From positions 880,444 to 944,443 of the forward strand of contig CAVVBP010000007.1 in the NCBI GenBank assembly GCA_963746535.1: a stretch of DNA of 64,000 bases. Direction: 5' to 3'. The notes under the pieces were generated by a model, which was not told where the DNA came from, did not search any database, and was given only the letters and a program-made list of their open reading frames with translations. This document shows, piece after piece, positions 1 to 16,900 of this stretch; position 1 is the stretch's first letter; each line of letters opens with the position of its first letter. A program made the position numbers and the translations under genes. Source of the DNA: Vicinamibacterales bacterium (GTDB lineage: Bacteria > Acidobacteriota > Vicinamibacteria > Vicinamibacterales > JAMQPK01).

Positions 1-1
1 T

Positions 2-484
2 GGGACGCCCGCTCGGGCCGCCCGCGCTCAGGCGGACGACTGGCTGGCGCGCGTGGGCCTCACCGGCTTCGAGTCGCACTATCCGGCGCAATTGAGCGGC
101 GGCATGCGGAAGCGCGTCGCGATGGCCCAGAACTGGATTCTCGGCCGCAGCCAGATGTTGATGGACGAGCCGTTCAGCGCGCTCGACGTTCACACGCGTC
201 AGCAGATGGAATCCGAGCTGCTCGCCATGTGGGACGAGGCCCGGCGCACGATTGTGTTCGTCACCCACGACCTTCACGAAGCGATTGCGCTCGCCGACGA
301 GGTGGTGGTCCTTTCGGCTGGTCCCGCCAGCCACATCGTCGCGAGACATCCGGTGAATCTTCCGCGCCCGCGCAGTCTGCTCGACGTACAGTTGCTACCG
401 GAGTTTTCGGACCTCTACCGGCACCTATGGTCGATACTGCGGGAAGAAGTGCTCAGAAGTCAGCGAGCGGTGACGCATGCGTAA
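2..484 (+). CDS. ABC transporter ATP-binding subunit, nitrate/sulfonate/taurine (TauB/SsuB-like) family, 5'-truncated by window edge
   Basis: Signature LSGGMRKR, Walker B LMDEPFSALD, switch VFVTHD; frame is open back to the window start. Confidence 0.9.
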   Translation, partial: GTPARAARAQADDWLARVGLTGFESHYPAQLSGGMRKRVAMAQNWILGRSQMLMDEPFSALDVHTRQQMESELLAMWDEARRTIVFVTHDLHEAIALADEVVVLSAGPASHIVARHPVNLPRPRSLLDVQLLPEFSDLYRHLWSILREEVLRSQRAVTHA

Positions 485-1260
485 AGGCACGATCACGCTC
501 TGGCGCGCCGCTGTCGGCCTCGGCGTGGTCGGGCTCTGGGAAGCCGCCGTTGCGATAGGTGTGGTTGACCCGTTCTTCGTGAGCCGTCCGAGCGCGATCG
601 CCCAGCGCATGTGGGTGTGGGCGTCCACAGGCTTCGTGTGGAGCCATCTCGCGATCACGCTGCAGGAGTCGATCCTGGGACTGCTCATCGGGTCGATCCT
701 CGGTACCGTCAGCGGGTTTGCGCTGGCGCGCTCCACGATGACGGCAAAGGTTCTCGAACCGTACATCATGATGTTGAACGCCGTCCCGCGCGTCCTGCTG
801 GCGCCACTTTTCCTGCTCTGGTTCGGCCTCGGTATCTGGTCGAAGGTCGCGCTGTCGGTCACACTGGTGTTCTTCATCATGTTTTTCAATGCGTACCAAG
901 GCGTACGGCAGGTCGACCGGGTGCTCATCGAGAACGCGCGCATGCTCGGCGCGACGGAGCGCCAGCTGGTGCGTCACGTGCTCGTGCCGAGCGCGCTCAC
1001 GTGGATCTTCTCGAGCCTGCAGGCCAGCCTCGGATTCGCGATGATCGGCGCCGTCGTCGGCGAGTATCTGGGCGCGACCCGCGGCCTCGGATACGTGATC
1101 AGCCAGGCCGAAGGCACATTCGACACGACCGGCGTTTTTTCCGGCATGGCGATTCTTTCGCTGGTCGTCGTCGTGATGAGCCGGGGCGTCGCTCGTGCCG
1201 AAGACTGGTTGCTGAGATGGAAGCGGCCGCTCATCGGCCTGCTCGTCGCCGTCGTCGCCG
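477..1260 (+). CDS. ABC transporter permease (SsuC/TauC-like); no stop at the expected end, reads on into the substrate-binding gene
   Basis: Multiple TM helices, LAPLFLLWFGLG and the EAA-loop equivalent ENARMLGAT; overlaps the ATPase stop. End coordinate approximate. Confidence 0.85.
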
Positions 1261-2230
1261 CGCCGGCAGCTCAGCGTGCCGCAAGGCGGACGGCGATGCG
1301 GGCGTGCATGTCCGGCTCGCCATTGGCGGGCAGACGCAGATGGTGTATCTGCCGACGACGCTGACGCAGGAGCTTGGTTTTTACAAGGAAGAGGGCGTCG
1401 AGGTAGAGCTCCAGGATTTCGAAGGTGGCGCCAAGGCGCTGCAGGCGCTCATCGGCGGGAGCGCCGACGTCGTCTCGGGCTTCTACGATCACACGATTCA
1501 GATGGCCGCCGAGGGGCGCCAGTTGACGGCGTTCGTCGTCATGCTGCGCTATCCGGGACTTGTCCTGCTCACCTCGCCGCAGGCTGCCAGCCGAATCACG
1601 AGCGTATCGGCGCTCGAAGGCGGCATCGCCGGCGTTACGACCCCAGGGTCATCGTCGCACCTGTTCCTGAACGTGCTTCTGGCTCAACACAAGGTTCCGA
1701 TTCAGTCCGTCAGCGCGACGGCAATCGGAAGCGGTGCCGCGGCAGTGGCCGCGCTCGAACGTGGCCGAGTCGATGCGGGATGGGTGGGAGATCCCGCGCT
1801 CACGATTCTCAGGCGGCGCAATCCCGGCATGCGGGTGCTTGCAGACCTGCGCGACGAGCGCGGCACGCATGATGCCTTCGGGACCGGCAGCTATCCGAGC
1901 GCAGTCCTCTATACGGAAACGTCGTGGCTGGAAGCACATCGGGATACGGCCGCGCGATTGGCCAGGGCGATCGTCAAGACGCTGCAATGGATGCAGACCC
2001 ATTCGGAGGAGGAGATCGCCGCGAAAGTTCCGTCGGCGCTGCGTGGGGAGGACTTCGCGCTGTACGTGGACGCATTGAAAAACTCGCGCCCCATGTTTTC
2101 AACCGACGGCGTTATGCCAGCCGACGGAGCGGCCGCGGTTCATGACGTGCTGGCAGCATCGAATCCAAAGGTCAAGGGTGCGACGATTGCACTCTCAAAG
2201 ACTTACACAAACGAATTCATACCTCGATGA
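1218..2230 (+). CDS. ABC substrate-binding protein (NMT1/SsuA-like); N-terminus split by a probable 1-nt indel near 1265
   Basis: YLPTTLTQELGFYKEEGVEVEL, GGAKALQALIGGSADVV and YPSAVLY in ORF 611..2230. The hydrophobic stretch LIGLLVAVVAA lies in the permease frame and a lipobox-like SSAC in the SBP frame. Confidence 0.85.
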
Positions 2231-2246
2231 ACCCGGATCAGCCCGC

Positions 2247-2269
2247 GTAGTGTCCGGCTTTAGCCGGAC
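2247..2269. repeat. GTAG-tagged REP-like palindrome (GTAGT-GTCCGGCTTTAGCCGGAC)
   Basis: GTCCGGCT/AGCCGGAC inverted repeat with GTAG foot; same unit at 27148-27170 and, in reverse orientation, at 61694-61716. Confidence 0.8.
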
Positions 2270-2295
2270 CGGGTACACGTTTCGGACCGAACGGC

Positions 2296-2536
2296 GTTGG
2301 GTTAGCGTTGCTGCCGCGCGAATCCGAAGCTCCGGGGCCGGACGCGCGCTGCGATGCCGCGGCGGACCGCGCGACGCGAGGACACCCACTTCGCCATTCG
2401 TCCTCGCTCGATGCCCTCGAGCTTCTCGCGCGGTCAGGCGTCACCCGTCGGCCGCCTTCGCCCTTCGACAAGCTCAGGGCGCCCCGAGCGAAGTCGAGGG
2501 GCGCACGGCTTCGCGCCGCAGCAACGCCAACCCAAC
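2296..2536. repeat. Structured ~200-nt dispersed element, copy 1 (carries an extra ~44-nt hairpin insertion)
   Basis: Outer arms 2296-2313 and 2519-2536 pair at 17/18; core CCGCGCGAATCCGAAGC...GACGCGAGG...CCTCGCTCGATGCCC...TCTCGCGCGGTCAGGCG...TCGGCCGCCT...CACGGCTTCGCGCCGCAGC is shared with copies 2 and 3. Confidence 0.85.
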
Positions 2537-2665
2537 TATCGCGACGCGCGACACGCGAGACGATTCTGAAAAGTGCTCTCTAGACTATAGACTAGGAGCT
2601 CAAGAGGGCCAGGAGAATTCAAACAGAAAACTCCTAATCTTCTGAACTTCTGTTTGGCTTCGTCG

Positions 2666-4630
2666 CTACTCGACGAGGCCGAACGCGAGAATCGCGTCTC
2701 CCGCTGCGATGGCAATGTATTCCTGACCGTCGAACTGGTATGCCATCGGCGACGCATGCCAGTTGGTATTGGCCTGGAAGGACCACAGCGTTTTGCCCGT
2801 GACGGCGTCGGCCGCGGCGAACGATCCGCTGTCGTCGCCGAAGAAGACGAGACCGGTCGCAGTGGCGAGCGTGCCACCCCAGGAGGAGCCGGTGCCGGTT
2901 TGCGGCAGCTCCCACTTCCGCTTGCCCGTCTGAAGATCGAGCGCGTACAGCAGCCGCTGCGGTTTCGGGTTGATGTCGACGCGTTGAGTCCCACCCCCGT
3001 ACGCCTTGCCCTGTTCCCATTCCACCGGGCGCTTCGTGTAGATCGAGCACTTCTCGAATACCTGAATGTAGTACAAGCCGGTCGAGGGGTTGTAGGAAGG
3101 GGAGAACCAGTTGGTCGCGCCATCCTGCGACGGGCAGACATGCGTGCCTTCGGCGGTCGGCTCCTGATTCGGCGTCTTGATCGGCTTTCCGTCTGCGCCG
3201 ATTCCGCTGGCCCACGTCAGGTTCTTGATGAACTGGGTGGCCAGCAGAAGCTTTCCATCCGCGCGGTCGAACACGTAGAAGAACCCGTTGCGATTCGCCT
3301 GCACGACCAGCTTGCGCGGACGGCCTTCCCAGGTGGTGTTGATGATCATCGGCGTCTCGGTGGCGTCCCAATCCCAGAGATCGTGCGGGGTGAACTGGTA
3401 ATACCACTTCAGCTTGCCGCTCGCGAGATCGAGCGCCAGGAGCGAGTCGGAGTACAGATTGTCGCCGATGCGTTCGTCGCCGTTGTAGTCGGGTCCGGGA
3501 TTGCCGGTCGGCCAGAAGAGTGTGCTGGTTTCCGGATCGTAGGTGCCGGTGAACCAGGCATTCGCGCCGCCACGATCGAGGCTCGTGCCCTTCCAGGTGT
3601 CCCACGCCGGTTCGCCGCGTTTCGGCAACGTCAAGAAGCGCCAGACTTCTTTTCCGGTTGCCTGATCGAACGCGGCCACGAAGCCCAGCGCGCCGTTGTC
3701 TCCGCCGCCAGTTCCGGAAATCACCAGACTTCCCGCGGCGAGCGGCGCCGAGGTGGCGCCGTGATTCAAGCGCCAGTCGGCCATCTCGACGTCCCACACG
3801 AGCCGGCCGTTCGCACGATCGAGCGCGATCAGGTGTGCGTTGTCGGTCACCATGAACACCTTGTCGGCGCTCAGCGCCACACCGCGATTGATGCCGCTCG
3901 CCGCGTCGCCGGCGAGGCCGGTGGATCGCGCTCGCAGGAATCGCCAGATCTCGCGGCCGTTGCCGGCGTCGAGCGCATAGCACTCGTTGGCTTGCGTGAC
4001 GTACATCACGCCGTCGGCCACGACGGGTGTGCCTTGCAGCCGGCCGGCGTTCGGGATCCTGAAGATCCATTTCGGCGCGACACGCTTGACGTTCGTCCTG
4101 TCGATCTGTTTGAGCGCCGTATAGCGGTTGCCACCGATGTCTCCGTTGTAGGTGTTCCAGTTGGTCTCGGACGTCACCTCGCGAAATCTGCCCGGACCGG
4201 CACTGCGCAGCAAGTGGATGCGGTTGTCGTCGGCGCGCACCTGCGCGTCTTCGGATCCTTCATTGAGGACCGTGCCGTCGAGCGATCGACCGTTGGGCAG
4301 CACGAAGCTCTTGCGATAGGGCTGGAATCCACCGCGGGGCCGGAGCGTCCGGACGAAGGCCATCAACGGCGGCAAATCCGTATCGCTGACGCCGATCGCC
4401 GGCATGCCACGCGCCGGCAGACCCTCGCGAATCAGCGTCGTCAGTTGCGGGTCCTGCAGATTCGCGAGCGCGCGGGTGATGGCGGGCGCATGCTCGCCGC
4501 CGTTGCCGTCGGCGCCGTGGCAGGTACCGCACTGGTCCTCGAAAATCCTCTTGCCGGGCGGTTCCTGGGCCCAGACCGGAGATGACAGCGCGATACAGAT
4601 CGCGAAAATTGAGCCGGAAAATCGAGCCAT
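2666..4630 (-). CDS. Secreted PQQ-dependent dehydrogenase (alcohol dehydrogenase-like beta-propeller) with N-terminal cytochrome c domain
   Basis: Signal peptide, CGTCH heme motif, PQQ propeller repeats (YALDAGNGREIW, LALDLASGKLKWYYQ, YALDLQTGKRKW), TGNPGP and HDLWDWDA. Confidence 0.9.
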   Translation of the reverse strand: MARFSGSIFAICIALSSPVWAQEPPGKRIFEDQCGTCHGADGNGGEHAPAITRALANLQDPQLTTLIREGLPARGMPAIGVSDTDLPPLMAFVRTLRPRGGFQPYRKSFVLPNGRSLDGTVLNEGSEDAQVRADDNRIHLLRSAGPGRFREVTSETNWNTYNGDIGGNRYTALKQIDRTNVKRVAPKWIFRIPNAGRLQGTPVVADGVMYVTQANECYALDAGNGREIWRFLRARSTGLAGDAASGINRGVALSADKVFMVTDNAHLIALDRANGRLVWDVEMADWRLNHGATSAPLAAGSLVISGTGGGDNGALGFVAAFDQATGKEVWRFLTLPKRGEPAWDTWKGTSLDRGGANAWFTGTYDPETSTLFWPTGNPGPDYNGDERIGDNLYSDSLLALDLASGKLKWYYQFTPHDLWDWDATETPMIINTTWEGRPRKLVVQANRNGFFYVFDRADGKLLLATQFIKNLTWASGIGADGKPIKTPNQEPTAEGTHVCPSQDGATNWFSPSYNPSTGLYYIQVFEKCSIYTKRPVEWEQGKAYGGGTQRVDINPKPQRLLYALDLQTGKRKWELPQTGTGSSWGGTLATATGLVFFGDDSGSFAAADAVTGKTLWSFQANTNWHASPMAYQFDGQEYIAIAAGDAILAFGLVE

Positions 4631-4890
4631 TTCGAGTCTCCTCGCTGTGATGGGGGCGCAATCTTACCCTTGGGGGCGACGCTAGACGATCGACGTGGCA
4701 CTGCGACCGTGCGCCTCTTTGTAGGACATGGGCCGACTTGACGCGATCTGCAAGTGTATTCACACTGCACACTTCTTTCTTACCTTACATCAGCAAAACG
4801 TTCGACGTTCGGACCCAGGTGGCGCAATTGGCGCGGTGTGGCAATTCGGTGTCCGTAGCGGTCGTGGTGTGCGTTCCGGAGGCGATGGCT

Positions 4891-7800
4891 ATGAGAGCAT
4901 TGTGCTGGGCATCTGTCGTTGTGCTTTGCGGCGCCGTGCATCCAACAGATGCAGTGGCGCAACCCACCTTGTCGGTGAACGGCGCGCCAGGTTCCGGAGC
5001 CGGTGACGGTCGTCGCCGGTTCGACGACCGCGGTCTTGGTCGCGGGCGGACCTGGTGCGCCCACTGATTGGATTGCCCTGTAGCCCACAGGGGCTTCTGA
5101 CAATGCGTACCTGGACTGGCGCTATCTGAACGGCGCGACCGTCGCACCGGCGGTCGGCCTTACGGATGCCACGGTGACGTTCAACACGCCGGTCGTGCCC
5201 GGTGCCTACGAGCTTCGTCTCTTCGCAAGCGATGGTTTCACGCGACTCGCCACCAGCGGCGTCGTGACCGTTGTCGCCTCTCCCGCTGAACTGATCGTGA
5301 ACGGGGCTTCACCTCCGGCCGCTGCAGCCGTCAGCGCCGGAACCCTCATCACCGTCGATGTGAACAACGGCCCCGCCAATCCGGGTGATTGGGTCGCCCT
5401 CTATGCGGCCGGCGCATCGGATGGAGCCTATCTCTCGTGGAGGTATCTGAACAATTCGACTGTTCAGCCCGCACATGGGTTCCGTCACCTCGACGTTGAC
5501 GTTCCAGGCACCGAGCGCGTCGGGCAGTTACGAATTCCGGTTCTTCGCGGCGAACAGCTTCGCGCGACTGGCAACCAGTACGACAGTGGTCATCAGCACC
5601 TCCACAGCGCAGCTCGTCGTCAACGGCATAGCGCCGCCTGCTTCCGTCACCGTGGCCGCGGGGGCCGTGGCAACGGTGACTGTGTCCGACGGTCCGGGCA
5701 ACACCACCGATTGGGTGGCATTCGCACCTGTCGGTGCCGCGGCAAATGCGTATGTGGATTGGCGCTATCTCAACGGAACCACGGTGCCGCCGCAGACCGG
5801 CGTCCCGGCGGCGACGCTGACCTTCGCGATGCCCTCGACCGTCGGCGCGTACGAATTCCGGCTGCTTGCGAACGACAGCCTCGACCAGATCGCGGCGAGT
5901 GGAACGGTCACGGTCCTGGCGCCGACCGCGCAGATTGCGATTAATGGCATCGCTCCACCCACGGGCGTTGCCGTTGACCCCGGCGCCGCGCTGACGGTGA
6001 ACGTCACCGGCGGGCCGGCCAACGCCACAGACTGGATTGCGCTTTCGTTCGCAAACGCGCCCGAGTCGAGCTACGTCGCCTGGATGTATCTCAACGGCAG
6101 CACAGCCGCACCGGCGGCGGGGCTGGCATCGGCGACCCTGTCGCTTACTCTCCCTTCATCACCAGGGATCTACGAGGTGAGGCTCTTTGCCAGTGACGGT
6201 TACACCCGTCTCGCGACCAGCAGCCCGATCTCCGCTTCCTCGTCGCCGGCCGAAGTCACCGTTCGCATGACGAGTCCGTTCCCGGGGACGACCTTCAATC
6301 TGCCCCCAGGCATCGACCTGTCGGCCGACGCATCGGCGACCAGCGGAACGATTACGAGCGTCGATTTCTTCGTGGACGCGGTGTTGGTCGGCAGCGCCAC
6401 GGCCAGTCCGTACACCGTGTCATGGACATCCCCGTCAGAGGGACAGCACGTACTGACAGCGGTCGCGATTCACAGCACGGCGGCGCCCGTGACATCACAG
6501 CCAGTCCACGTCACCATCTCGGGGCCCGATACCCAAGCCGGAATATTGGGTGCCCCGATTGTCTCACCGCCCCCGGGATCGTACGGCCCTGGCTTGACGG
6601 TCACGCTTACGGCGGCGGCCGGCGCCGCCATTCGTTTCACAACGGACGGCTCAGCCCCCAGCGTCGCCTCACCGGTCTATTCCGGCCCCATCTCCTTGAC
6701 CGCGGCCGATACCGTGGTTCGCGCGCAGGCGTTCCAGAACGGATGGTACGATAGCAATGGGACGCGTGCGTCGTATCACCTCGATCTCGAGGCGCCGACG
6801 ATCTACGCCACTCTCTCCCCGTTGCCGAATGGCAACGGCTGGAACGCGACGAGTCCGGTGACGATCACGTTCGTGTGCAGCGATCCCGCCGGCGTGCAGG
6901 TCTGTCCATCTCCAATGACCATCGTCCAGGAGGGCGTGACCGAATTCGTCTCAGGGAATGCCGTCGATGCCTACGGTCACACGAGCACTACCGCAGTGAC
7001 GGTGAAAATCGACAGCATTGCCCCAACCGTCAGTCTCAATACGGCTCCAGAGAACGGAACGACCGTTTCGGAGTCATCGATCAATATTGGGGCTGCCGTC
7101 GGCGATGTGCTGTCTGGGGTTACCGCCGTCAGGTGTAACGGGGAGCTCGCCGCGGTTGACAACGGCTCCGCGGCCTGCGTCGTCTCGTTGCACCCTGGGC
7201 TGAACTCGGTGGTGCTCAGCGTGACGGATGCGGCGGGCAACACGGCCTCTGTCGGCCGTCGAGTCACCCATCAGGCTGTCCCCACCGCACTGGCGCTCTC
7301 ACCTGAGAGCCGGAGCCTGTTCATCGGCGAGTCCAGCACACTGATCGCGACCACCGAGTCTGGTCCGATCAACTCTGGTGTGACATGGAGCTCGAGTAAT
7401 GATGCCATTGCGTCGGTCGCCGAAAACGGCGCTGTCACGGGCCATCTCCCCGGTGAGGCGACCGTTACGGCGACGCTCGATGCCCTCTCGGCCACAGCGA
7501 CACTACGGGTCATCGCGAGCGGCTCGACGGAAGTCCGGTGGACCATTTCACCTATACCTGGACTAGCGGCGACGCGCCCCATTTTCGCGAATCGCGTGGA
7601 CGATGCCGGACCAGACCTGTTCGACGTCAACACCGCGTTTGAGGTGCCCACCGTCGTGCGCGCGCTGCGCCATGACGGCACGCAGGTGTGGAGCGCGACC
7701 GTCGAGGGCACGCCGATGTTCGGGGACATATTCGGTGGTCTGGTCCTGCGGGACACCGAATGGAGGTCGCTGACGCGCCTGGGCGGCTCCGAGGAATCGG

Positions 7801-9449
7801 CACCGTGGCGATACGAATCGATCGGGTACCTTGACGAGAGGCCGGCTCAAGCGGCCGACGGCACCATTTATCAGATCGAGTACACGGAGAGCGACAATCC
7901 TCAGAGCTATGTTGTGGGCCTCGATGGCCTCACGGGAACCGTCAAATTCCGGGTGCCCCTACCGGCGTCGACTGGGCATCGCGACCGCCCGGTGTGTGGT
8001 ATTTCGATTCCCGCCGTATTCGGCGATGCGGGTTATTGCCTTCCCGTGCCGTCCGTGACGCAGCAGAGTGGTGCGCCCAGCGTGTCGTCACCGATCATCG
8101 GTCTCGACGGTGAGGCCTATGTCGGTCTCGTCGAAAGACACGAAGACTGGCGCCAGCATGGTTACGTGAGCTGGTCGTGCGATTTCAGTTGTTCGTCAAT
8201 CCCACCGCAGCCGATTCCGCACGAGGCCAGCGGCCTGGGCACGTTCAGCCGGTCGACCACGGTCAAGCTGCTGCGCATCGAACCTGAAGGGCTGGCGACG
8301 ACGCAGACACTCTGGCAGACCTCCACGGCGGGAGCGGATACGCCAGAACGGGTCTACAGCGCCGATGAGACGAACGATATGAGTGAGCTGGTGATTGACG
8401 AAGAGGGTGCGGTGTTCTTCCAGGTCACAGACGTCAGCAGTCGTTGGGGCGCGGACTCTGAAGACCGCGTGAACGGTCAACACATGTGCCCGACGCAACC
8501 GGTATTCGACCGGTACTGTTATCACGTCGAAGACGAAGCGAGCACCCTGCGTATCGCGCGGATCGAGGGTGCGAACGTCACGACTCGAACGCTCGACACA
8601 CAACCCGGGGGGTACTATTTCGGGCCGTGGTCGCTCAAGCTGATCGGGGACAACCACACGGCTTTTCTGCAGCACGAAACAGGAATCGAGGCCATTAGCA
8701 CGCAAACCCTGAGCATGAAATGGACGATTCCGAGCGAGGGCTGCTGCGAAAATCTCACAGCCATGCGCGACGGCGGCGTCGCCATCATGGGGGATGATGA
8801 CATCTTGCGAGCTATCGACGATGGCGGTAATTCAACAGCGATGGGAAATAGACCAGCATTCGAGGCCGTCCAGGCAGCTCCCGGATACTGGGTTGGCTTG
8901 GCTCCAGGGATGAGCGGTATGCAGCTCGTCTCCGCGTTTGGTCCGTCGATCTTGGAACCTTCGTATGCCTTCTGGAGTCTCGGTGGCAATTTTCGTATGA
9001 CGAACGCGGCAGAGTTCATAGATTGGCCAACCGTGAGAGTAAATTGCCGTCCTATAGCAGAAACTCTGAATATCCTCAATCACTGCTATATCGTCGCCCG
9101 CCAGAGTAGAGAGCACACCTTCTACATTGGGTCCGGCCCGACTGGACAGCCGCCGCCCTACGGACTCAACGAAGCAAACCTTACGCTCACCATGTCACAG
9201 CAAGATGCCAATGCGCCATGGACGTTCTATTGGCTCAAGAGATCTGTCAAGCCGGAGGTAATCCCCTGTATGGCTCAGGCACGACTCAACTGGAACTCGG
9301 CAGCCATTGAGTACAAGCCCGATGGTCCGAATAGCAATACTTTTGCAAGCTGGCTCGTTCACGAATGCAAGGCGCCTGTGGTGCCGTCCCCGTTGGCGCT
9401 CACTCCCGGTTGGTACCACTTCATTGACTTTGGAGTGCCGACATTTTGA
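4891..9449 (+). CDS. Large secreted multi-domain protein: four tandem Ig-like repeats, further Ig/CHB_HEX-like and Big_2-like domains, propeller-like region and a distinct C-terminal domain; 5' part broken by 2 frameshifts and an in-frame TAG at 5081
   Basis: GGAGG RBS 8 nt before ATG 4891; signal peptide MRALCWASVVVLC; repeats DW(I/V)AL...Y..W.YLNG; IRFTTDGSAP; VTWSSSNDAIASV; C-terminal HCYI...GPNSNTF. Reconstructed from ORFs 4738..5067, 5174..5944 and 5475..9449. Confidence 0.75.
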
Positions 9450-10345
9450 GATGTTCAAGTCTCGCGCACGGCTCATTTCGGCTGGCTCTGGCGATCACAG
9501 GTGCGGCCGGGCTCATGGGATGCACTTTAGAGCCCTCACCCCGCGCCGACCTGACGCCGGCCATCGCACAAGGATTCTGTGTCGTGCAGTTTCAGCGTGG
9601 AGGGATCGACATTCTTCCTCTTGATGGATCTCAGCGAAGAGAGGAAGGCATGTTGTCGACCACTTCCTCCAACGTGAGCGGTCGCGTCGCCCCAGATGGA
9701 AGCTACGTCGCTGTCGTTTATGCAAGTTCGGTTGCGGGCGTCATGCTTGACGGACAGACGTTGTGGGAGTTTCCCACGAACGGGCCCGCCAGACCCGCGA
9801 TCAGTCCCGATGGGAAAAAGGTTGCGGCTACCGATAACACGCAACTCCTCGTCTATGACATTCCGACGGGCCAACTTAACAAATGGACAGTTACCGGCGA
9901 TCGTCCAGACTGGTCTCCGGACATGAGCCGTCTCGCATATGACCACGATGGTCACGTTTATATCTTCGATCTGGCCAAAGGAGCCTCTGTTCCACTCGCC
10001 GAGGGGAGCGACCCGTCCTGGGCCCCAGGCGGCCGCGCTGTAGCCGTGCGGTCCGGTCGCCACACATTCGATCTCATTACGGTCGACGCACGTGTGCGCA
10101 CCCGACTCTTCGAGGGTGACAACACCTGGACGCCGCGTTGGTCGCCCGACGGGGAATGGATGTCGTATGGAGCCTCCGGCGGCTATCGCTGGTGGTCGCT
10201 CAGCGAACGATTGGTAGAACCGCGCCAGGTCATCGTCCGGCATGTCAAGACTGGTGCCGAGGCGGTAGTAGGCATCACCCTGCTAGGGAATAATCGCGAT
10301 TTCACGTGGGCGAAGAGCCCAGCGCTTTGCAGAGGAGTTTCTTGA
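9446..10345 (+). CDS. Lipoprotein with TolB/PD40-like beta-propeller repeats
   Basis: Lipobox GLMGC; repeats PAISPDG, PDWSPD, PSWAPGG, PRWSPDG; start overlaps the upstream stop codon. Confidence 0.8.
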   Translation: MRCSSLAHGSFRLALAITGAAGLMGCTLEPSPRADLTPAIAQGFCVVQFQRGGIDILPLDGSQRREEGMLSTTSSNVSGRVAPDGSYVAVVYASSVAGVMLDGQTLWEFPTNGPARPAISPDGKKVAATDNTQLLVYDIPTGQLNKWTVTGDRPDWSPDMSRLAYDHDGHVYIFDLAKGASVPLAEGSDPSWAPGGRAVAVRSGRHTFDLITVDARVRTRLFEGDNTWTPRWSPDGEWMSYGASGGYRWWSLSERLVEPRQVIVRHVKTGAEAVVGITLLGNNRDFTWAKSPALCRGVS

Positions 10346-10721
10346 AAGCGCCGGAATGCCCTGCGTCTTGCCTCATCATCCCCGGCGAGACGTTGGCGCT
10401 CGCGAGTAGGGGCCAGTTCGTTAGGTACCGGTAAACGGCGTAGCGTTTAGGTATGCGTTGACCCGCTCAGGCCACCTGTCGAAATCCGTCCAGCTGTCTT
10501 AGCCATTGGGGAATGCGGTGCCAAACTCGCTAAGTTAGGTCACTCCTTCTTCCTAGTAGACCCTGGAATTTTCCAGTGCGAAGCCTCCCGAACGCCAACG
10601 ATGGTAGCCAGCCTGATAGCCACGCCACACTGGCCGAAGCCGGGCGCCCGTTGCAGGATTGCTGCTGGCTGCGCTGGCGTCGGCCGAGCATGATCCGCGG
10701 CCAAGGGGAGTGATGCACAGT

Positions 10722-11393
10722 TCAGCGATCAACTAGAGCAACTAGAGCGTTCGATCGCTCAGCCACCTGTTTCATCAAGGCAGTCAGCTCTGCTTGATGC
10801 TCGAGGAGGAACATCACATTGTCGGGGTGGACTCGCTCGAGCTCTTTGGGCGGCTCCTGACCGACGCCTGACCTCCGCAAGCCCGCGACCATCGCGGCCA
10901 TTAACCCCGCAAGCTGGTACTTCGAATAATCACGCGCCGTCAGACCGCTCCTGCCGAGTGCCGCGATGAACCGCGGGTTGGCCTTCAGCTCGGCCTCCAT
11001 CTGGTCCAGGCTCCGCACCCTGGTCAGGCCCAGATCGCCGAAAGCCTGATGGAGCGCGTCCAATTGCTGCCCGACCTGCAACTGCAGCTTCTTGAACCGC
11101 TCGGCTTCGGCCTGCGTGAGTTCCTCTCTTTTTGCAAGAGTCTCCAGTTCGGCGTTCGTCTTCTGGACCGCCTCGAGTTCCGGACCGTCGACGATGTCCT
11201 GAATCAGTGAAAGCATCGCCGCGTGTACCTTGTTCGCGGTGTCCATCGTGAGCCGGTATGACGCGAGTTCCTGACTATCAGCGGCAGAAAAGCCGGGACT
11301 CTGGGCATTCGGAACCGACATAAGCGACACAATCATCGATGCCGTAAGCAGTAGCCGGATGTACTGTTCCATCGAGCTCCTTGTCGCGTGCAT
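10722..11393 (-). CDS. Hypothetical secreted alpha-helical protein
   Basis: Signal-peptide-like N-terminus (LLLTASMIVSLMSVPNAQ); coherent 223-aa ORF; true start may be the second Met. Confidence 0.6.
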   Translation of the reverse strand: MHATRSSMEQYIRLLLTASMIVSLMSVPNAQSPGFSAADSQELASYRLTMDTANKVHAAMLSLIQDIVDGPELEAVQKTNAELETLAKREELTQAEAERFKKLQLQVGQQLDALHQAFGDLGLTRVRSLDQMEAELKANPRFIAALGRSGLTARDYSKYQLAGLMAAMVAGLRRSGVGQEPPKELERVHPDNVMFLLEHQAELTALMKQVAERSNALVALVDR

Positions 11394-11720
11394 TCGGTGC
11401 GGAGTGCAATGTTATGGCCATCAGGGGGCCACGAGGACGGTTCAACATTGTCAAAGCACGGCCGGGGTGTGTGCGACCTTGAGACACGTCGATCACGAAT
11501 CGCGTCTACTCGTCGGAGTCAGCGTCAGTGAATTTTCATTGAGGGGAACTAGCCGAGATAGCTGCCTGGAGAGGGTATCTTTGGGATACGGGAGATGTGA
11601 CCCTCTACTACTTGGGCAGCCACGGGAATCTGCTCCCTGCGTTGGCCGCGATCTTACAGCAGGGATCCCTCCAGACGTGGACGATGGACGATCGACGTGC
11701 CTCTGACCTAGGATTGTGCC

Positions 11721-12917
11721 GTGACCGAGCCCACCGAAGACTTCGCCGCGATGTTCGAAGCGTCGATCAAGGCGAAGCGCGTCGAAAAGGGCCAGACGCT
11801 CGAGGGCACCATCGTCGGAATCGGTCCGGAAGTGGCGTTTGTCGATGTGGGCGGGAAGGGCGAAGCGACGATCGAGATCGGCGAGTTGAAGGACGCCGAC
11901 GGCCGGGTCGAAGTCGCGGTGGGCGATCGCATTCAGGCCGTGGTGATCTCGACCGCTGGAGGCCTCACCCTTTCGCGCACGTTGGCGCGCGGTGCGGCGA
12001 CAGAGCGGCAACTCCAGGACGCGTTCCAGAGCCGTCTTCCCGTCGAAGGGAAGGTGGTCCGGGTCGTGAAGGGTGGGTTCGAGGTACAGATCGGCCGCAG
12101 CCGCGCCTTTTGTCCGATCTCGCAGATTGACAGCGCCCGGACCGACGACGCGACCGCGCACGAGGGGCGCGTGTACCGGTTTCGCATCATCGAGTACAAG
12201 GAAGGCGGCAGAAACCTCGTCGTCTCGCGGCGTGCGCTGATTGAAGAAGAGCAGCGCGCGAACGCCGCCGAGATTCGGCGCGCGATCGTCCCCGGGGCCG
12301 TCATGCCGGGACGCGTGACCTCGGTGCGCGACTTCGGAGCATTTATCGATCTAGGTGGAGGCGTGCAGGGGCTGCTGCACGTGTCCGAAATGGATTGGGC
12401 GCGTGTGTCGGATGCGTCGCAGATCGTCAAGCCGGGGCAGGAGGTCACCGTCAAGGTCCTGCGCGTCGACGCCGGCACGCAGAAGATTTCTCTCGGTTTG
12501 AAACAACTGACCGAGGATCCGTGGACGAACGTCACGCAGACATACACCGTGGGCCAGGTGCGCACCGGCCGGGTGACGCGCGTGGCCGACTTCGGCGCGT
12601 TCGTCGAGCTCGAGCCTGGAATAGAGGGCCTGGCGCACGCTTCGACGTTCGCCCCCACGGGAAGATCGGAAGGATGGTCCGCACAGGTACCGCCGGGCAC
12701 CACCGCGGCGTTCGAGATCGTGACGATTGACGCCGAGAAGAAACGTATTGGCGTTGCGCTGATCCCGGAAGGATCGTCGCGCGCGAGCCAGGCGATGGAT
12801 GCACGCAGTGCCAATCCGCCGGGCGAGTATCCCGACGGCGGAGAACAGGCTGTCCCCGAAAAGCTCGGCTCGCTGGCCGACAAGCTCCGGAGCGCGCTCG
12901 AGCCGCGGAACAAGTGA
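11721..12917 (+). CDS. rpsA: 30S ribosomal protein S1-like protein, short paralog with about 4 S1 domains
   Basis: S1 repeats AFVDVGGKGEA, GGFEVQIG.RAFCPISQ, FGAFIDLGGGVQGLLHVSEM, FGAFVELEPGIEGLAHAS; 398 aa. Confidence 0.85.
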   Translation: MTEPTEDFAAMFEASIKAKRVEKGQTLEGTIVGIGPEVAFVDVGGKGEATIEIGELKDADGRVEVAVGDRIQAVVISTAGGLTLSRTLARGAATERQLQDAFQSRLPVEGKVVRVVKGGFEVQIGRSRAFCPISQIDSARTDDATAHEGRVYRFRIIEYKEGGRNLVVSRRALIEEEQRANAAEIRRAIVPGAVMPGRVTSVRDFGAFIDLGGGVQGLLHVSEMDWARVSDASQIVKPGQEVTVKVLRVDAGTQKISLGLKQLTEDPWTNVTQTYTVGQVRTGRVTRVADFGAFVELEPGIEGLAHASTFAPTGRSEGWSAQVPPGTTAAFEIVTIDAEKKRIGVALIPEGSSRASQAMDARSANPPGEYPDGGEQAVPEKLGSLADKLRSALEPRNK

Positions 12918-12920
12918 AGG

Positions 12921-13883
12921 ATGCGTATGACCCGCCGAAGACTGTTGCTGTCATCGTTCCTCGCCGTGCTGTGGTTGATTCCCGCAGCTGGCGCGGGGCA
13001 AGGTGGCGCTTCGACGGCGCGGCCAGGCCTCGACGGGATCTGGAACTCCGGGACTGCGACGCCGCTCGAACGTCCGGCGCAGCTGAAGGACAAAGCGTTC
13101 TACACGCCTGAAGAGGCGGCAGAGTGGGAACGCCAGGTGGCGGGGCGCAATCAGGAGCCGTCTCCCGCCGCCGCTGCGAAAAGTACCGGCACGGGGACGT
13201 ACAACACCTTCTTCCGCGAGTTTGGTTCACGCACGGTTAAAACGCTCCGCACCTCGATCGTCACGGATCCACCCGATGGGCGCATTCCCGCGCTGACGCC
13301 GGAGGCGGCCGAAGTGAAGCGTCGTCTTCTCGACGCAATGGAAAATCCCGCAAGCGCCGAGGACACGGGTCTGCAGGATCGGTGTCTGGCGTTCGTCACC
13401 GCAGGCCCGCCCATGCTTCCGTACTCCTATAACAGCAACTATCAGATCCTCCAGACCGGGGATGCCGTCGTGATCTACGCCGAGATGAATCACGATACGA
13501 GGGTCATCTATCTGGATGGCCGTCCTCATCTTCCATCGACGATCCGGCTGTGGATGGGGCACTCGATCGGCCGCTGGGAAGGCAGCACGCTCGTCGTGGA
13601 CACGACGAACTTCAACGACGCCGGCGGCTACTACGGGTCGGCGGGCGGCAACTTCGGGTGGGACCGGAATCTCCACCTGGTCGAACGGTTCAGTCTGCTC
13701 GACCCCGACACGCTGCTCTACCGGTTTGAAGTGAACAACCCGACCGCGTATACCCGGCCCTGGAAAGGCGAGCTGACGCTCTCGCGATCGCCTGGACCGA
13801 TCTACGAGTATGCCTGCCACGAAGGCAACTACTCGTTGTCGAACATGCTCAGCGGCCACCGCGCTTCAGAGCAGGCTCCGTAG
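12921..13883 (+). CDS. Conserved hypothetical secreted protein
   Basis: Signal peptide; LDGIW, GHSIGRWEGSTLVVDTTNF, YEYACHEGN motifs of a family I associate with Acidobacteria. Confidence 0.7.
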   Translation: MRMTRRRLLLSSFLAVLWLIPAAGAGQGGASTARPGLDGIWNSGTATPLERPAQLKDKAFYTPEEAAEWERQVAGRNQEPSPAAAAKSTGTGTYNTFFREFGSRTVKTLRTSIVTDPPDGRIPALTPEAAEVKRRLLDAMENPASAEDTGLQDRCLAFVTAGPPMLPYSYNSNYQILQTGDAVVIYAEMNHDTRVIYLDGRPHLPSTIRLWMGHSIGRWEGSTLVVDTTNFNDAGGYYGSAGGNFGWDRNLHLVERFSLLDPDTLLYRFEVNNPTAYTRPWKGELTLSRSPGPIYEYACHEGNYSLSNMLSGHRASEQAP

Positions 13884-13975
13884 GTTCGGTGAGGCCGCCA
13901 GACCTTTCCTTAACGGCTTCGCGGAATCTCTAGCGTGCGCCGGCTAACAGCGGTACGCTTCATGCCACGGCTGCT

Positions 13976-16900
13976 GTGTTGCGTCTTCAGAGACTGAATT
14001 TCCGGGCGAATTCTGGCGGTGGGACCTCCGCCCACGAAGCGTCGTGGGACGTCCCGTGGGGTGCATTGGGCCGGGAAGAAGTCTTTTCCGCGCTCATCGA
14101 GAACGCGCCGTTTGGCGTGTACGTCGTCGACTCGCACTTCCGTCTCCGCGCGATCAACAAGGGTGCGGAAGCGGTGTTCCTGGGAGTCGATCCGCTCCTG
14201 GGTCGAGACTTCGGCGAGATCCTTCGCGTCATCTGGCCAGAGACATCAGCGGCCGAAACCATTGCCGCCTTCACCCACACGCTTGCCACCGGCGAGCCCC
14301 ATGCCGCTCTGGGAACCGCGGATTCGCGCGGACACATCGATCGGGCTGCTTCCTACGATTGGCAGATTCAGCGGATGACGCTGCCGGACGGCACCTTCGG
14401 CGTGGTGTGCTACTTCTACGACCTCACACGGTTCCAGGAAGCGGAAGCGGCGATCACATCGGCGGCCGAGCGCGATGCGTTTCTCGTGACGCTCAACGAC
14501 CGGCTGCGGCCGCTGACCGACGCCCTCGCAATTCAGACCGAGGCGGTGCGCGTGCTCGGCGAGCACCTCCAGACCGACTGGGTCCACCTGGCGGAGTACG
14601 ACGAGGACCTCGCCTTTGCCACCATTCGCTGCGAGTACGTCAGGGGCGATGTGCAGAGACTGGTGGGACGCTATCCGGTCCAGGGCATCGGGCCGCTGTT
14701 GACGGTGTTGAAGGACGGCCACACCGTTGCCGAGTCCGACATGGCCATGTCGGCGCTGGTCACGCCGGAAGGACGAGCCATGTATGCGGCCGTCGGCGTG
14801 CGTGGCCATGCGGCCGCTCCGGTCGTCAAACGTCATCGGCTGCTCGCGGCGATCGGCGTGTGCGATCGTGCCCCGCGTGCCTGGACCGCGCAGGAGATCG
14901 GGCTCATCGAGGCCACCGCGGAGCGCACCTGGGCGGCGCTCGAACGTGCCCGCGCGGAGCGCGCGCTCCGCGACAGCGAAGCGCGGCTGCAACTGGCCCT
15001 CGGCATGTCGAACATGGGCACGTTCGTCTGGCACATCCAGGCGGATCGCGGAGAGCCCGATGCGCGGATGCTGGCCCTGTTCGGCCTGCGCGAGGATGAG
15101 AGACTGTCGCTGACGGCTCTCGGGTCGCTGATGCATCCGGACGACCGCACGCGGTACGCGCGCGCCGTGGCACACGCGATCGATCCGGCTGGCCCCGGCG
15201 CGCTCCGTGAAGAGGTGCGCGTCCTGCATCCGGACGGGGACGAGCGGTGGCTGTTCATCGCCGGCCAGACGGTATTCGAGCCGGAGATGGGCCCGGCCGT
15301 GCGGATGTCGGGGATGGCCGCCGATATTACCCAGCGCAAGAACCGCGAGAATGCGCTGGTGTTTCTGACCGATCTGGGTCGAGAGTTTTCCCGTGCCGTG
15401 TCGACGGACGAAGTCATGCAGGCCGCCGGCGAGAAGGTCGCCGCGTTTCTCGGCGTGAGTGCGTGCTACGTGATGACGATCGACGAGGATCGGGACGAAG
15501 CCCGCATGGACTACGCGTGGGCGCTCGGGGGCGCGCCACGCGTGCCCGAGGTCGTCCGCCTTTCGGATTTCATCACGGACGAGCTTCGAGGCGCCGCCCA
15601 CGCGGGCTCCACCGTTGTCGTCGGCAACACCCAGACCGATCCCCGCACGAATGCCAGGGCATACGCGACGCTCGGCATCGGCTCGTACCTCTTCCAGCCG
15701 ATTCTGCGCGACGGCGCATGGACACACCTGGTTGCCGTGTGCGATTCACGGCCGCGCGACTGGCGCGCGCACGAGATCGCCCTGTGCCGCGAGCTGTCGA
15801 ACCGGCTGTTTCCGCGCCTGGAGCGGGCACGCGCCGGACAGACCGTCGCCAACGACCTGCGCGATACCCAGTTGCTGCAGTCGCTCAGCGCGCAGCTCAT
15901 CGGCGAGCAGGGCAGCGCGTCGCTGTACGAAACGTTGATCGACGCAGCCGTGTCGATCATGCAATCGGAATTCGTGAGCCTCCAGATGCTCCATCCCGAG
16001 CGGGGCGCGGGCGGCATGCTGCACGGGATCGCCTCGCGCGGCTTCAGCCCTGATGCGCTGCGAGACTGGGAGTGGATCGATTGCGCCGACAAGACTGTCT
16101 GCGCGGCAGCCCTGCGCGCCGGGGCTCGCGTCGTCGTGTCCGACATCGAGGCCTGCGAGTGGATGGCCGATACAGTCACCCAGGCCAAATACCTGCGGGA
16201 GGGCATCCGTGCGGTTCAGTCGACGCCGCTCGTCTCGCGCGGCGGCAAGGCACTGGGCATGATTTCCACGCATTGGTCACAGCCGCACCGGCCCTCGGAA
16301 CGCGAACTGCGGCTCCTCGACATCCTCGCGCGGATGGCGGCCGACCTGATGGAGCGCACGCAGGCCGAGGACACGCTGCGACGGAACGAGCAGACGTTGC
16401 GCGAGGCCGATCGCCGCAAGGACGAGTTCCTCGCCATGCTGGCGCACGAGCTACGCAATCCGCTGGCGCCTCTGCGGACGGGTCTCGAGTTGATCCGGCT
16501 GGCCGGCGATACCTCCGAAGCGGTCGCGAGCGTTCGCACGATGATGGAAGAGCAGGTGGCGCAGATGGTGCGCCTCATCGAAGACCTGCTCGACGTCTCC
16601 CGGATCACGACGGGCAACATCCGGCTTCAGCGCCGGCCCACGCGGCTGGCCACGCTGGTCAACGCCGCCATCGAAGCCAACCGGGCCGCGATTCGACACG
16701 GCCGGATGGCGCTCGACGTCCACGTCCCCGACGTGCCGGTTCTCGTCGACGTCGATCCCACGCGATTCGTGCAGATCCTCTCGAACGTGCTGCACAACGC
16801 CGTCAAGTTCACCGACGCCGGCGGCCGCATCACGCTTAACGCGGAAGTCGAAGCGCAGGAGGGGAGTGGCGCCGAACACGTGGTGCTGACCGTCACCGAT

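Follow-up and report, generated by a model that had tools for sequence, protein, structure and literature searches.

A locus in assembly GCA_963746535.1 of a soil-dwelling Vicinamibacterales bacterium (Acidobacteriota; contig CAVVBP010000007.1) probably encodes a Sec-dependent polymorphic toxin with an exchangeable, DUF3750-like C-terminal domain (the tip), followed by an immunity protein that is a beta-propeller lipoprotein. The two genes occupy positions 4891 to 10345 of the 64,000-nucleotide stretch analysed here, which we term the window. An earlier note, made from the DNA letters and their open reading frames (ORFs), had interpreted the pair as a polymorphic toxin and its partner, and this interpretation was supported. 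The case is built on the domain architecture of the toxin, the variation of its tip on a constant scaffold, the anomalous base composition of the tip-plus-lipoprotein cassette and the recurrence of that cassette on RHS proteins. Residues of the window protein are numbered according to P0001, its longest intact ORF. The principal features are listed below.

4891..9449, + strand: polymorphic-toxin gene, about 1518 codons when three 5′ lesions are disregarded
7530..8990, + strand: BamB/PQQ-like beta-propeller 'pre-toxin' domain of about 490 residues (AlphaFold2 model; no Pfam match)
8988..9017, + strand: scaffold/tip junction, where BLASTP homology to relatives with other tips stops (residues 1172-1181)
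9009..9446, + strand: toxin tip, a predicted DUF3750-like permuted papain-like domain of 146 residues (AlphaFold2/Foldseek, family alignment)
9081-9083, + strand: candidate catalytic His, H1203 (in H-C-Y-I, nucleotides 9081-9092)
9333-9335, + strand: candidate catalytic Ser, S1287 (in YKPDGPNSNTF)
9446..10345, + strand: candidate immunity gene, P0002, a PD40/TolB-like beta-propeller lipoprotein of 299 residues (Pfam/NCBIfam)
8500..10000, no strand: low-GC block taking in the propeller's last part, the whole tip and the greater part of the immunity gene (GC 0.567 against 0.642 for the genome)

The point at which homology to other-tip relatives breaks coincides with the start of the tip, at about position 9015. 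A protein from a genome of the same genus (G023) shares 44% identity with the window protein over residues 1-1181 and is unrelated beyond; its own tip (E...HTHP...S..D) gave a weak match to DUF4329 (Tox-JAB-2), and an unrelated lipoprotein of 228 residues is encoded downstream of it. BLASTP matches to P0003 and to a fragment in G004 stop at residues 1174 and 1172, respectively. A second DUF3750-like tip type (H...YNSNSF) was present in G266, G004, G397 and P0004 to P0007, the tip of G169 was JAB-like, those of G204 and G106 contained HExxH, and P0003 bore another type again, giving at least five tip types on the propeller scaffold. The small downstream genes vary with the tip: a 96-residue protein with three transmembrane segments follows P0007, and a 238-residue protein follows P0003. 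Stalk homologues with different C-termini and different downstream genes, which the earlier note had suggested looking for as a sign of an exchangeable tip, were therefore found (G023, G169, G204, G106, G266 and P0003). Of 401 Vicinamibacterales genomes, 14 have the propeller domain, in every case immediately ahead of a variable tip, and it is the signature domain of this scaffold. The tip subfamily of the window was absent from all other genomes of this set, the window genome (G000) being its sole carrier among the 401.

Two further observations concern the scaffold and its junction. A loose aromatic-x(3-6)-G-N motif lies 10-15 residues ahead of the point of tip divergence (window 8950-9010) and recurs at the equivalent junction in P0003 to P0007, P0011, P0012, P0022 and P0025; examples are GGNFRMTN, AGNPQKQ, IGNKLRQ, VGNGPRQ, TGNIQGA and MFGNAAA. 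The motif might be a junction for processing or recombination, by analogy with VENN or DPxGL. In G204, locus L064 (C7:781000-799000) contains three tandem propeller-scaffold genes, two of them near-identical with out-of-frame C-termini and the third with an HExxH metallopeptidase-like tip; it looks like either a toxin array or an assembly-noisy duplication.

The lipoprotein gene was found directly downstream of this tip subfamily in six of six loci whose DNA was retrievable, comprising the window and five independent loci, and within this set of loci its matches were confined to those with this tip subfamily. The linkage proposed from the window thus holds in other genomes. In L014, L015 to L017 and L018/L019 the tip is carried by propeller scaffolds, while in L020 and L077 it is carried by RHS proteins; in each case a homologue of P0002 (33-41% identity) overlaps or abuts the stop codon. 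In L077, a single uninterrupted ORF runs from RHS repeats (RHS_repeat, 37 bits against a cut-off of 22) through ...RRIDPLGD into the tip, with no other segment between the DPLGD core end and the tip, and is followed by an overlapping gene whose product is 41% identical to P0002. In the RHS proteins L020 and P0014, too, the tip adjoins the DPLGD core end. These comparisons show that the tip-plus-propeller cassette has moved between the propeller scaffold and RHS proteins.

The presence of the same pair on unrelated RHS toxins argues for a competition toxin rather than an adhesin. An alternative is that the large protein is no toxin at all, being instead a secreted or surface enzyme or adhesin whose hydrolase acts on the cell's own envelope or on an environmental substrate, with the lipoprotein as its chaperone, anchor or regulator. 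The Ig-like and CHB_HEX_C domains of the stalk are common in secreted glycan-active proteins, and in the relatives P0004 to P0007 the surroundings of the gene are conserved and housekeeping-like, a sigma54 activator lying upstream and gcvT/H/P downstream. However, the module at the C-termini of RHS proteins lies directly after DPxG...DPLGD, a position reserved for toxins; unrelated catalytic domains replace the tip on the same scaffold, each with a different small downstream gene; and the cassette is compositionally foreign. We consider this alternative improbable.

The foreign composition of the cassette is evident at several scales. Only 0.46% of the 1.5-kb windows of the genome are as low in GC as positions 8500-10000. 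GC content was 0.539 in the tip, the lowest-GC stretch of the 64-kb window, 0.599 in the downstream gene and 0.647 in the stalk, and GC at third codon positions (GC3) was 0.61-0.63 over the cassette against 0.76 in the stalk. Alongside the rarity of the tip, this drop is a signal of horizontal transfer. A dip had been noted from about 8.8 to 10.4 kb; it is real and unusual, and its start was corrected to about 8.5 kb. A second low-GC patch (0.56-0.58) lies just downstream of the cassette at 11100-11500, around an ORF of 223 residues (window 10722-11393, - strand) that has a signal peptide, is helix-rich and has no Pfam match.

The downstream gene begins with TTG at 9446, overlapping the TGA stop of the toxin gene by 4 nt, with GGAG situated 10 nt upstream. 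Its product has a lipoprotein-type signal ending in Cys, together with conserved N- and C-terminal Cys residues, and is PD40/TolB-like, in keeping with the overlapping beta-propeller lipoprotein described before. The public gene call begins instead at Met69 (231 residues) and so drops the signal peptide; since the region before Met69 is conserved in four homologues, the TTG at 9446 is the right start. The specific family of P0002 has about seven members, after which scores drop steeply to generic PD40/TolB-like proteins. We rejected the possibility that the gene encodes a true TolB (TIGR02800), as it scored 42.9 bits against a cut-off of 343, matched over the blades only and does not have the N-terminal TolB domain (PF04052). 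Mobile elements were seen at two related loci. In L015 (756-1724 and 8027-9085), the P0012 toxin/immunity pair has an island-like setting: next to it are a fragment of an RHS (TEN_YD-shell) gene, accompanied by small ORFs, and an rve_3 integrase/transposase. An IS110 transposase and a HepT/MNT pair are near P0003 (L002).

We sought to assign the tip to a fold. When 1.84 billion cluster representatives were scanned exhaustively with HMMER, only 13 proteins with this tip emerged. The family alignment varies little or not at all at the His (HCY), a Cys, N-S-N and G-W; H1203, N1286-S1287-N1288 and the G-W motif are invariant across the aligned tip relatives. The AlphaFold2 (AF2) model of the tip had a mean predicted local distance difference test (pLDDT) score of 85.8 and a predicted template modelling score of 0.81. 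In it, the His lies on a strand and Ser1287 begins a helix (model residues 118-128), and the order of H34 then S118 is the permuted one, with the His strand preceding the nucleophile helix. A Foldseek search of the PDB with this model returned TseH (6v98) as the top match (E 1.8e-3, probability 1.0, TM-score 0.53). Next came CLN5, Aichivirus 2A and PPPDE1, and each of these proteins has a permuted papain-like fold. By sequence, single-sequence and profile searches of the tip against the PDB found nothing meaningful. DUF3750 (PF12570) was matched by 7 of the 12 tip family members (best E 6.4e-6), and an RHS-borne copy of the tip aligned with it at 19.4 bits over profile positions 3-110, nearly the whole profile. 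According to the model, the tip thus belongs to the permuted papain-like/NlpC-P60 superfamily, and the fold related to PPPDE and DUF3750 that had been proposed from the HCYI and YKPDGPNSNTF motifs is borne out.

The residue at the nucleophile position, already recognised as Ser, was Ser in 12 of 12 aligned family members, and the catalytic Cys of permuted NlpC/P60 proteins such as TseH, Tox-Act1, LRAT and YiiX is absent. DUF3750 has itself been classed as a papain-like family whose Cys is replaced by Ser (PMC10318531). Paired Cys residues elsewhere in the tip suggest disulfides. The substitution raises the question of whether the tip is catalytically dead and acts by binding, as a receptor-binding or pore-associated domain, with the lipoprotein propeller as a receptor mimic. 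Ser in place of the canonical Cys would fit this view, as would the lack in DUF3750 of the negative pocket found in active Ser variants (PMC10318531). Conversely, the His, N-S-N and G-W are invariant across relatives only 14-44% identical, a pattern typical of an active site and not of a binding surface, and the two DUF3750-like tip types retain the Ser, as does Pfam DUF3750. A dead, binding tip therefore seems unlikely. The literature searched contained no assigned function or toxin context for DUF3750.

The remainder of the toxin comprises a stalk and the pre-tip propeller. The features of the stalk are as follows.

4891..4962, + strand: Sec-type signal peptide, MRALCWASVVVLCGAVHPTDAVA followed by Q (assigned by inspection; the orthologues have an equivalent ...A-x-A end followed by Q)
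4957..6243, + strand: four beta-sandwich repeats of about 95 residues, diverged and varying in copy number between orthologues
4957..6243, + strand: consensus of these repeats, ..L.VNG..PP..V.V.AG....V.V..GP.N..DW.A......Y..W.YLNG.T..P..G...ATLTF..P...G.YEFR.FA.....LA.S
6258..7502, + strand: Ig-like stalk (Pfam)
6258-6461, + strand: Big_7 (Pfam)
6567-6749, + strand: CHB_HEX_C_1/Fn3_assoc (Pfam)
7041-7271, + strand: Glucodextran_B-like (Pfam)
7290-7502, + strand: Big_2 (Pfam)

The Ig-repeat stalk of the earlier note is accordingly matched by Pfam in four domains. Tandem Repeats Finder detected no tandem repeat in the stalk DNA because the 95-residue repeats are too diverged at the DNA level. 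Between stalk and tip, a propeller of about 490 residues (7530-8990) had been overlooked; the stalk-then-tip layout was otherwise correct. A Pfam search of this 493-residue middle region (residues 686-1172) found no match, and its nature is known solely from the AF2 model, which is all-beta and resembles BamB and other PQQ-type propellers (E about 1e-7). The combined propeller-plus-tip model is usable for residues 1-440 of the modelled stretch; beyond 440, pLDDT falls below 45 and the tip is poor. When the window's own propeller domain was used as a query of the genome contigs, no relative was matched.

No single open frame from position 4891 was found in this assembly by stop-to-stop and three-frame reading. 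The ATG of the signal peptide at 4891 is in frame 1, coding of the repeat protein passes to frame 2 at about 4995 and to frame 0 at about 5470, and the 5′ 585 nt or so of the gene are consequently out of frame with its final 3975 nt. DNA alignment with two orthologues from the same genus resolved the 5′ breaks into two +1 insertions and one TAC/TAT-to-TAG change.

4985..5010, + strand: lesion 1, one additional base relative to the G004 and G023 orthologues, shifting frame 1 to frame 2
5081..5083, + strand: lesion 2, a TAG in frame at a codon that is TAC/TAT in the orthologues (Tyr of a W-I/V-A-L/F-Y motif)
5462..5480, + strand: lesion 3, one additional base relative to the orthologues, shifting frame 2 to frame 0
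5475-9449, + strand: longest intact ORF as assembled (P0001, 1324 residues), which begins within a repeat and is without a signal peptide

Of the large secreted protein that had been read from 4891, the signal peptide and the stalk were thus upheld, whilst the single open frame exists conceptually only in this assembly. Together with the overlooked propeller, these frame breaks mean that the original observation was confirmed in part. Programmed frameshifting was ruled out, there being two separate +1 insertions and a nonsense codon, none of them at a slippery run.

The lesions might instead be genuine, in which case the strain would make no secreted toxin and would keep the lipoprotein as protection against kin that still fire; the locus would remain a polymorphic-toxin locus, but a dead one. 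The three lesions lie within 600 nt of the start, the G004 orthologue is also broken, with several breaks and a truncation within the N-S-N motif, and decay of the toxin with retention of immunity is common in polymorphic toxin loci (PMC3482391). Against this, the other 3975 nt are open with a GC3 normal for coding DNA, and three neutral lesions would fall within the same 12% of the gene by chance in only about 0.2% of cases. To gauge the quality of the assembly, long ORFs of two related genomes were placed on the window genome by tblastn, yielding 21 clear orthologues. Three of these conserved genes, all outside the window and at 60-95% amino-acid identity, had three frame switches each relative to close orthologues: a class I fructose-bisphosphate aldolase (C12:602083-603163), KdpB (C7:493999-495251) and a CoxL-like gene for a CoxL-type dehydrogenase subunit (C14:798801-801184). 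Clustered frameshift noise therefore seems, from these alignments, to be a general property of this assembly, and its apparent pseudogenes are to be distrusted. Moreover, the broken copies derive from few-contig assemblies (14 contigs and 6.1 Mb for the window genome; G004 likewise few-contig), and the intact G023 orthologue of 1738 residues comes from a 200-contig assembly. Given the similar clusters in three of 21 conserved genes, assembly error is the likelier cause of the 5′ lesions, by a clear but not a commanding degree. A decayed toxin is a real but distinctly minor possibility for the locus as a whole.

The Sec-exported toxin that we favour resembles several known systems in part. An accepted class of polymorphic toxins is exported by Sec or the type II secretion system (T2SS) and bears beta-propeller repeats, as described by Zhang, Aravind et al. 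(2012, PMC3482391). Like these, the window protein has a signal peptide, a repeat or stalk region, a variable C-terminal toxin domain and an immunity gene directly downstream; in addition, its toxin domain is shared with RHS proteins, and one sister tip resembles Tox-JAB-2/DUF4329, two names for the same domain in that survey. Unlike them, its scaffold matches no named Pfam pre-toxin or trafficking domain, and processing domains of the HINT, caspase and ZU5 kinds are lacking. The toxin, immunity and scaffold families of the window are not in the catalogue of that survey, in which beta-propellers were not found among immunity proteins (PMC3482391). RHS/YD-repeat toxins (L020, L077, P0014) carry the same tip-plus-immunity cassette; in contrast to them, the window protein has no YD repeats, RHS shell or DPxGL aspartyl-protease motif, and has a propeller before its tip. 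Pfam/NCBIfam scans found neither RHS_repeat, YD-shell nor a PxxxxDPxGL core end in P0001, and likewise no two-partner secretion (TPS) domain, filamentous haemagglutinin (FHA) repeats or VENN-type pre-toxin motif, and no CdiB-like gene lies nearby. The description of the scaffold as neither RHS nor contact-dependent growth inhibition (CDI) is therefore sound: the window protein contains no RHS or TpsA/FHA domain, and the domain preceding the tip is a BamB-like propeller.

With regard to the tip, the closest counterparts are TseH, which with its immunity protein TsiH is from Vibrio cholerae and was the best structural match, and Tox-Act1 of Salmonella. These permuted NlpC/P60 effectors are phospholipases that act in the periplasm, TseH according to a recent assay (PMC12994826). 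As in the window tip, the fold is permuted with the His before the nucleophile; both effectors are antibacterial, act from the periplasm and have an envelope-located immunity protein, and lipid-directed hydrolysis has been reported. They differ in using a Cys nucleophile and in being small proteins delivered through type VI secretion (T6SS), whereas the window tip has Ser and is fused to a Sec-exported giant or to an RHS protein; sequence identity is about 13% and the immunity proteins are unrelated. DUF3750, PPPDE/DeSI (PF05903) and CLN5 share with the tip a His on a strand followed by N-(S/C)-N-x-F at a helix N-terminus. DUF3750 also shares the Ser variant (PMC10318531), and the window tip is unlike it in having an additional CRP...HC Cys pair and an NWN helix. 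For the immunity protein, the nearest precedent is Tsi1 of Pseudomonas aeruginosa, which neutralises the papain-like amidase Tse1 and is a partial beta-propeller (PMC3391265). Both pairs combine a papain-like envelope toxin with a periplasmic, all-beta immunity protein of the DPP-IV/PD40 propeller-like type. Unlike the window tip, however, Tse1 reaches its target through T6SS and is a Cys amidase of the canonical, non-permuted kind. Tsi1, at about 150 residues, forms only part of a propeller, with three sheets, as against the full, multi-blade PD40/TolB-like lipoprotein of about 270 residues that is P0002.

We propose the following mechanism. The protein is ordered as a signal peptide, Ig-like repeats, a BamB-like propeller and a C-terminal putative toxin domain that recombination can swap. 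The lipoprotein nature of the immunity protein and the likely disulfides of the tip indicate action in the envelope, so that the site would be periplasmic. There, the tip would use His1203 and Ser1287, the latter replacing the usual Cys at a helix N-terminus, to hydrolyse an acyl, ester or amide bond, by analogy with TseH, Tox-Act1, LRAT, CLN5 and PPPDE. The likeliest substrates would be membrane phospholipids or lipoprotein acyl chains, with peptidoglycan peptides next. The translationally coupled lipoprotein would serve as the cognate periplasmic immunity protein, binding directly to the tip and blocking it in the producer and its kin. Much more speculatively, and by analogy with colicins, a TolB-like immunity protein may act as a decoy for a Tol-dependent import step and not as an active-site plug. 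The tip may be released near the G-N junction.

The genes flanking the locus encode a PQQ dehydrogenase, a substrate-binding protein, an S1-domain protein and a sensor kinase. At the loci of P0007, P0004 and P0006 (L001, L003 and L004, respectively), the scaffold gene is preceded by genes for a ComEA-like helix-hairpin-helix protein, a GspH-like pseudopilin, a small ORF and a sigma54 activator, and is followed first by a small transmembrane protein and after that by gcvT/H/P. A T2SS- or pilus-related route of export might be hinted at by the pseudopilin genes.

Several points weigh against the reading of the locus as a functional toxin with its immunity protein. Toxicity, immunity and substrate are what we infer from the domains and their context. 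As assembled, the toxin gene is unable to yield a full-length protein that is secreted. Within the window, none of the genes flanking the locus belongs to a secretion system, which leaves passage through the outer membrane unaccounted for. The dip in GC begins some 500 nt ahead of the homology break, and the exchanged segment may therefore take in the last propeller blades. For the tip, the alignment used for AF2 had 12 rows only, and the E-value of the best Foldseek match is modest (1.8e-3, TM-score about 0.5). The window tip itself falls under the DUF3750 gathering threshold (14.8 against 25 bits, E 0.048, motif only), which makes it by sequence a distant relative of DUF3750 that the curated threshold does not admit as a member. 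The pocket of DUF3750 carries a positive charge, in contrast to the serine-variant papain-like proteins thought to be active (PMC10318531), and a tip with Ser for Cys could be low or zero in hydrolytic activity. The most divergent homologue of the lipoprotein propeller (L078) follows a fragment of an S9-type alpha/beta hydrolase gene and not a tip, which may reflect a different toxin partner or an unrelated context. Finally, a hidden Markov model scan of window positions 1-16000 detected neither orphan tips nor spare immunity genes downstream.

The locus nonetheless fits the polymorphic-toxin paradigm and adds to it an uncatalogued toxin family, immunity fold and scaffold. We raise more tentatively, as a suggestion that may well not hold, that it represents an uncatalogued class of Sec-exported polymorphic toxins of the Acidobacteriota. 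In this class, a BamB-like propeller would stand where other toxins have the RHS cage or the CdiA pre-toxin region, the toxin would be a serine-nucleophile, DUF3750-type protein directed at the envelope or its lipids, and the immunity proteins would form the first complete beta-propeller family of this kind.

Acidobacteriota are abundant soil bacteria and, to our knowledge, their mechanisms of competition are almost unstudied; the locus defines in them a delivery scaffold that is neither RHS nor CDI. It would give the orphan family around DUF3750 a concrete role as an antibacterial toxin tip, the first function for DUF3750 if true, and it offers a natural case for deciding whether a papain-like fold with Ser for Cys is an active hydrolase. 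A full beta-propeller lipoprotein would join the immunity folds, from which it was absent according to the founding survey. The occurrence of one toxin-immunity cassette on both a propeller scaffold and RHS proteins is a clean example of shuffling across delivery systems.

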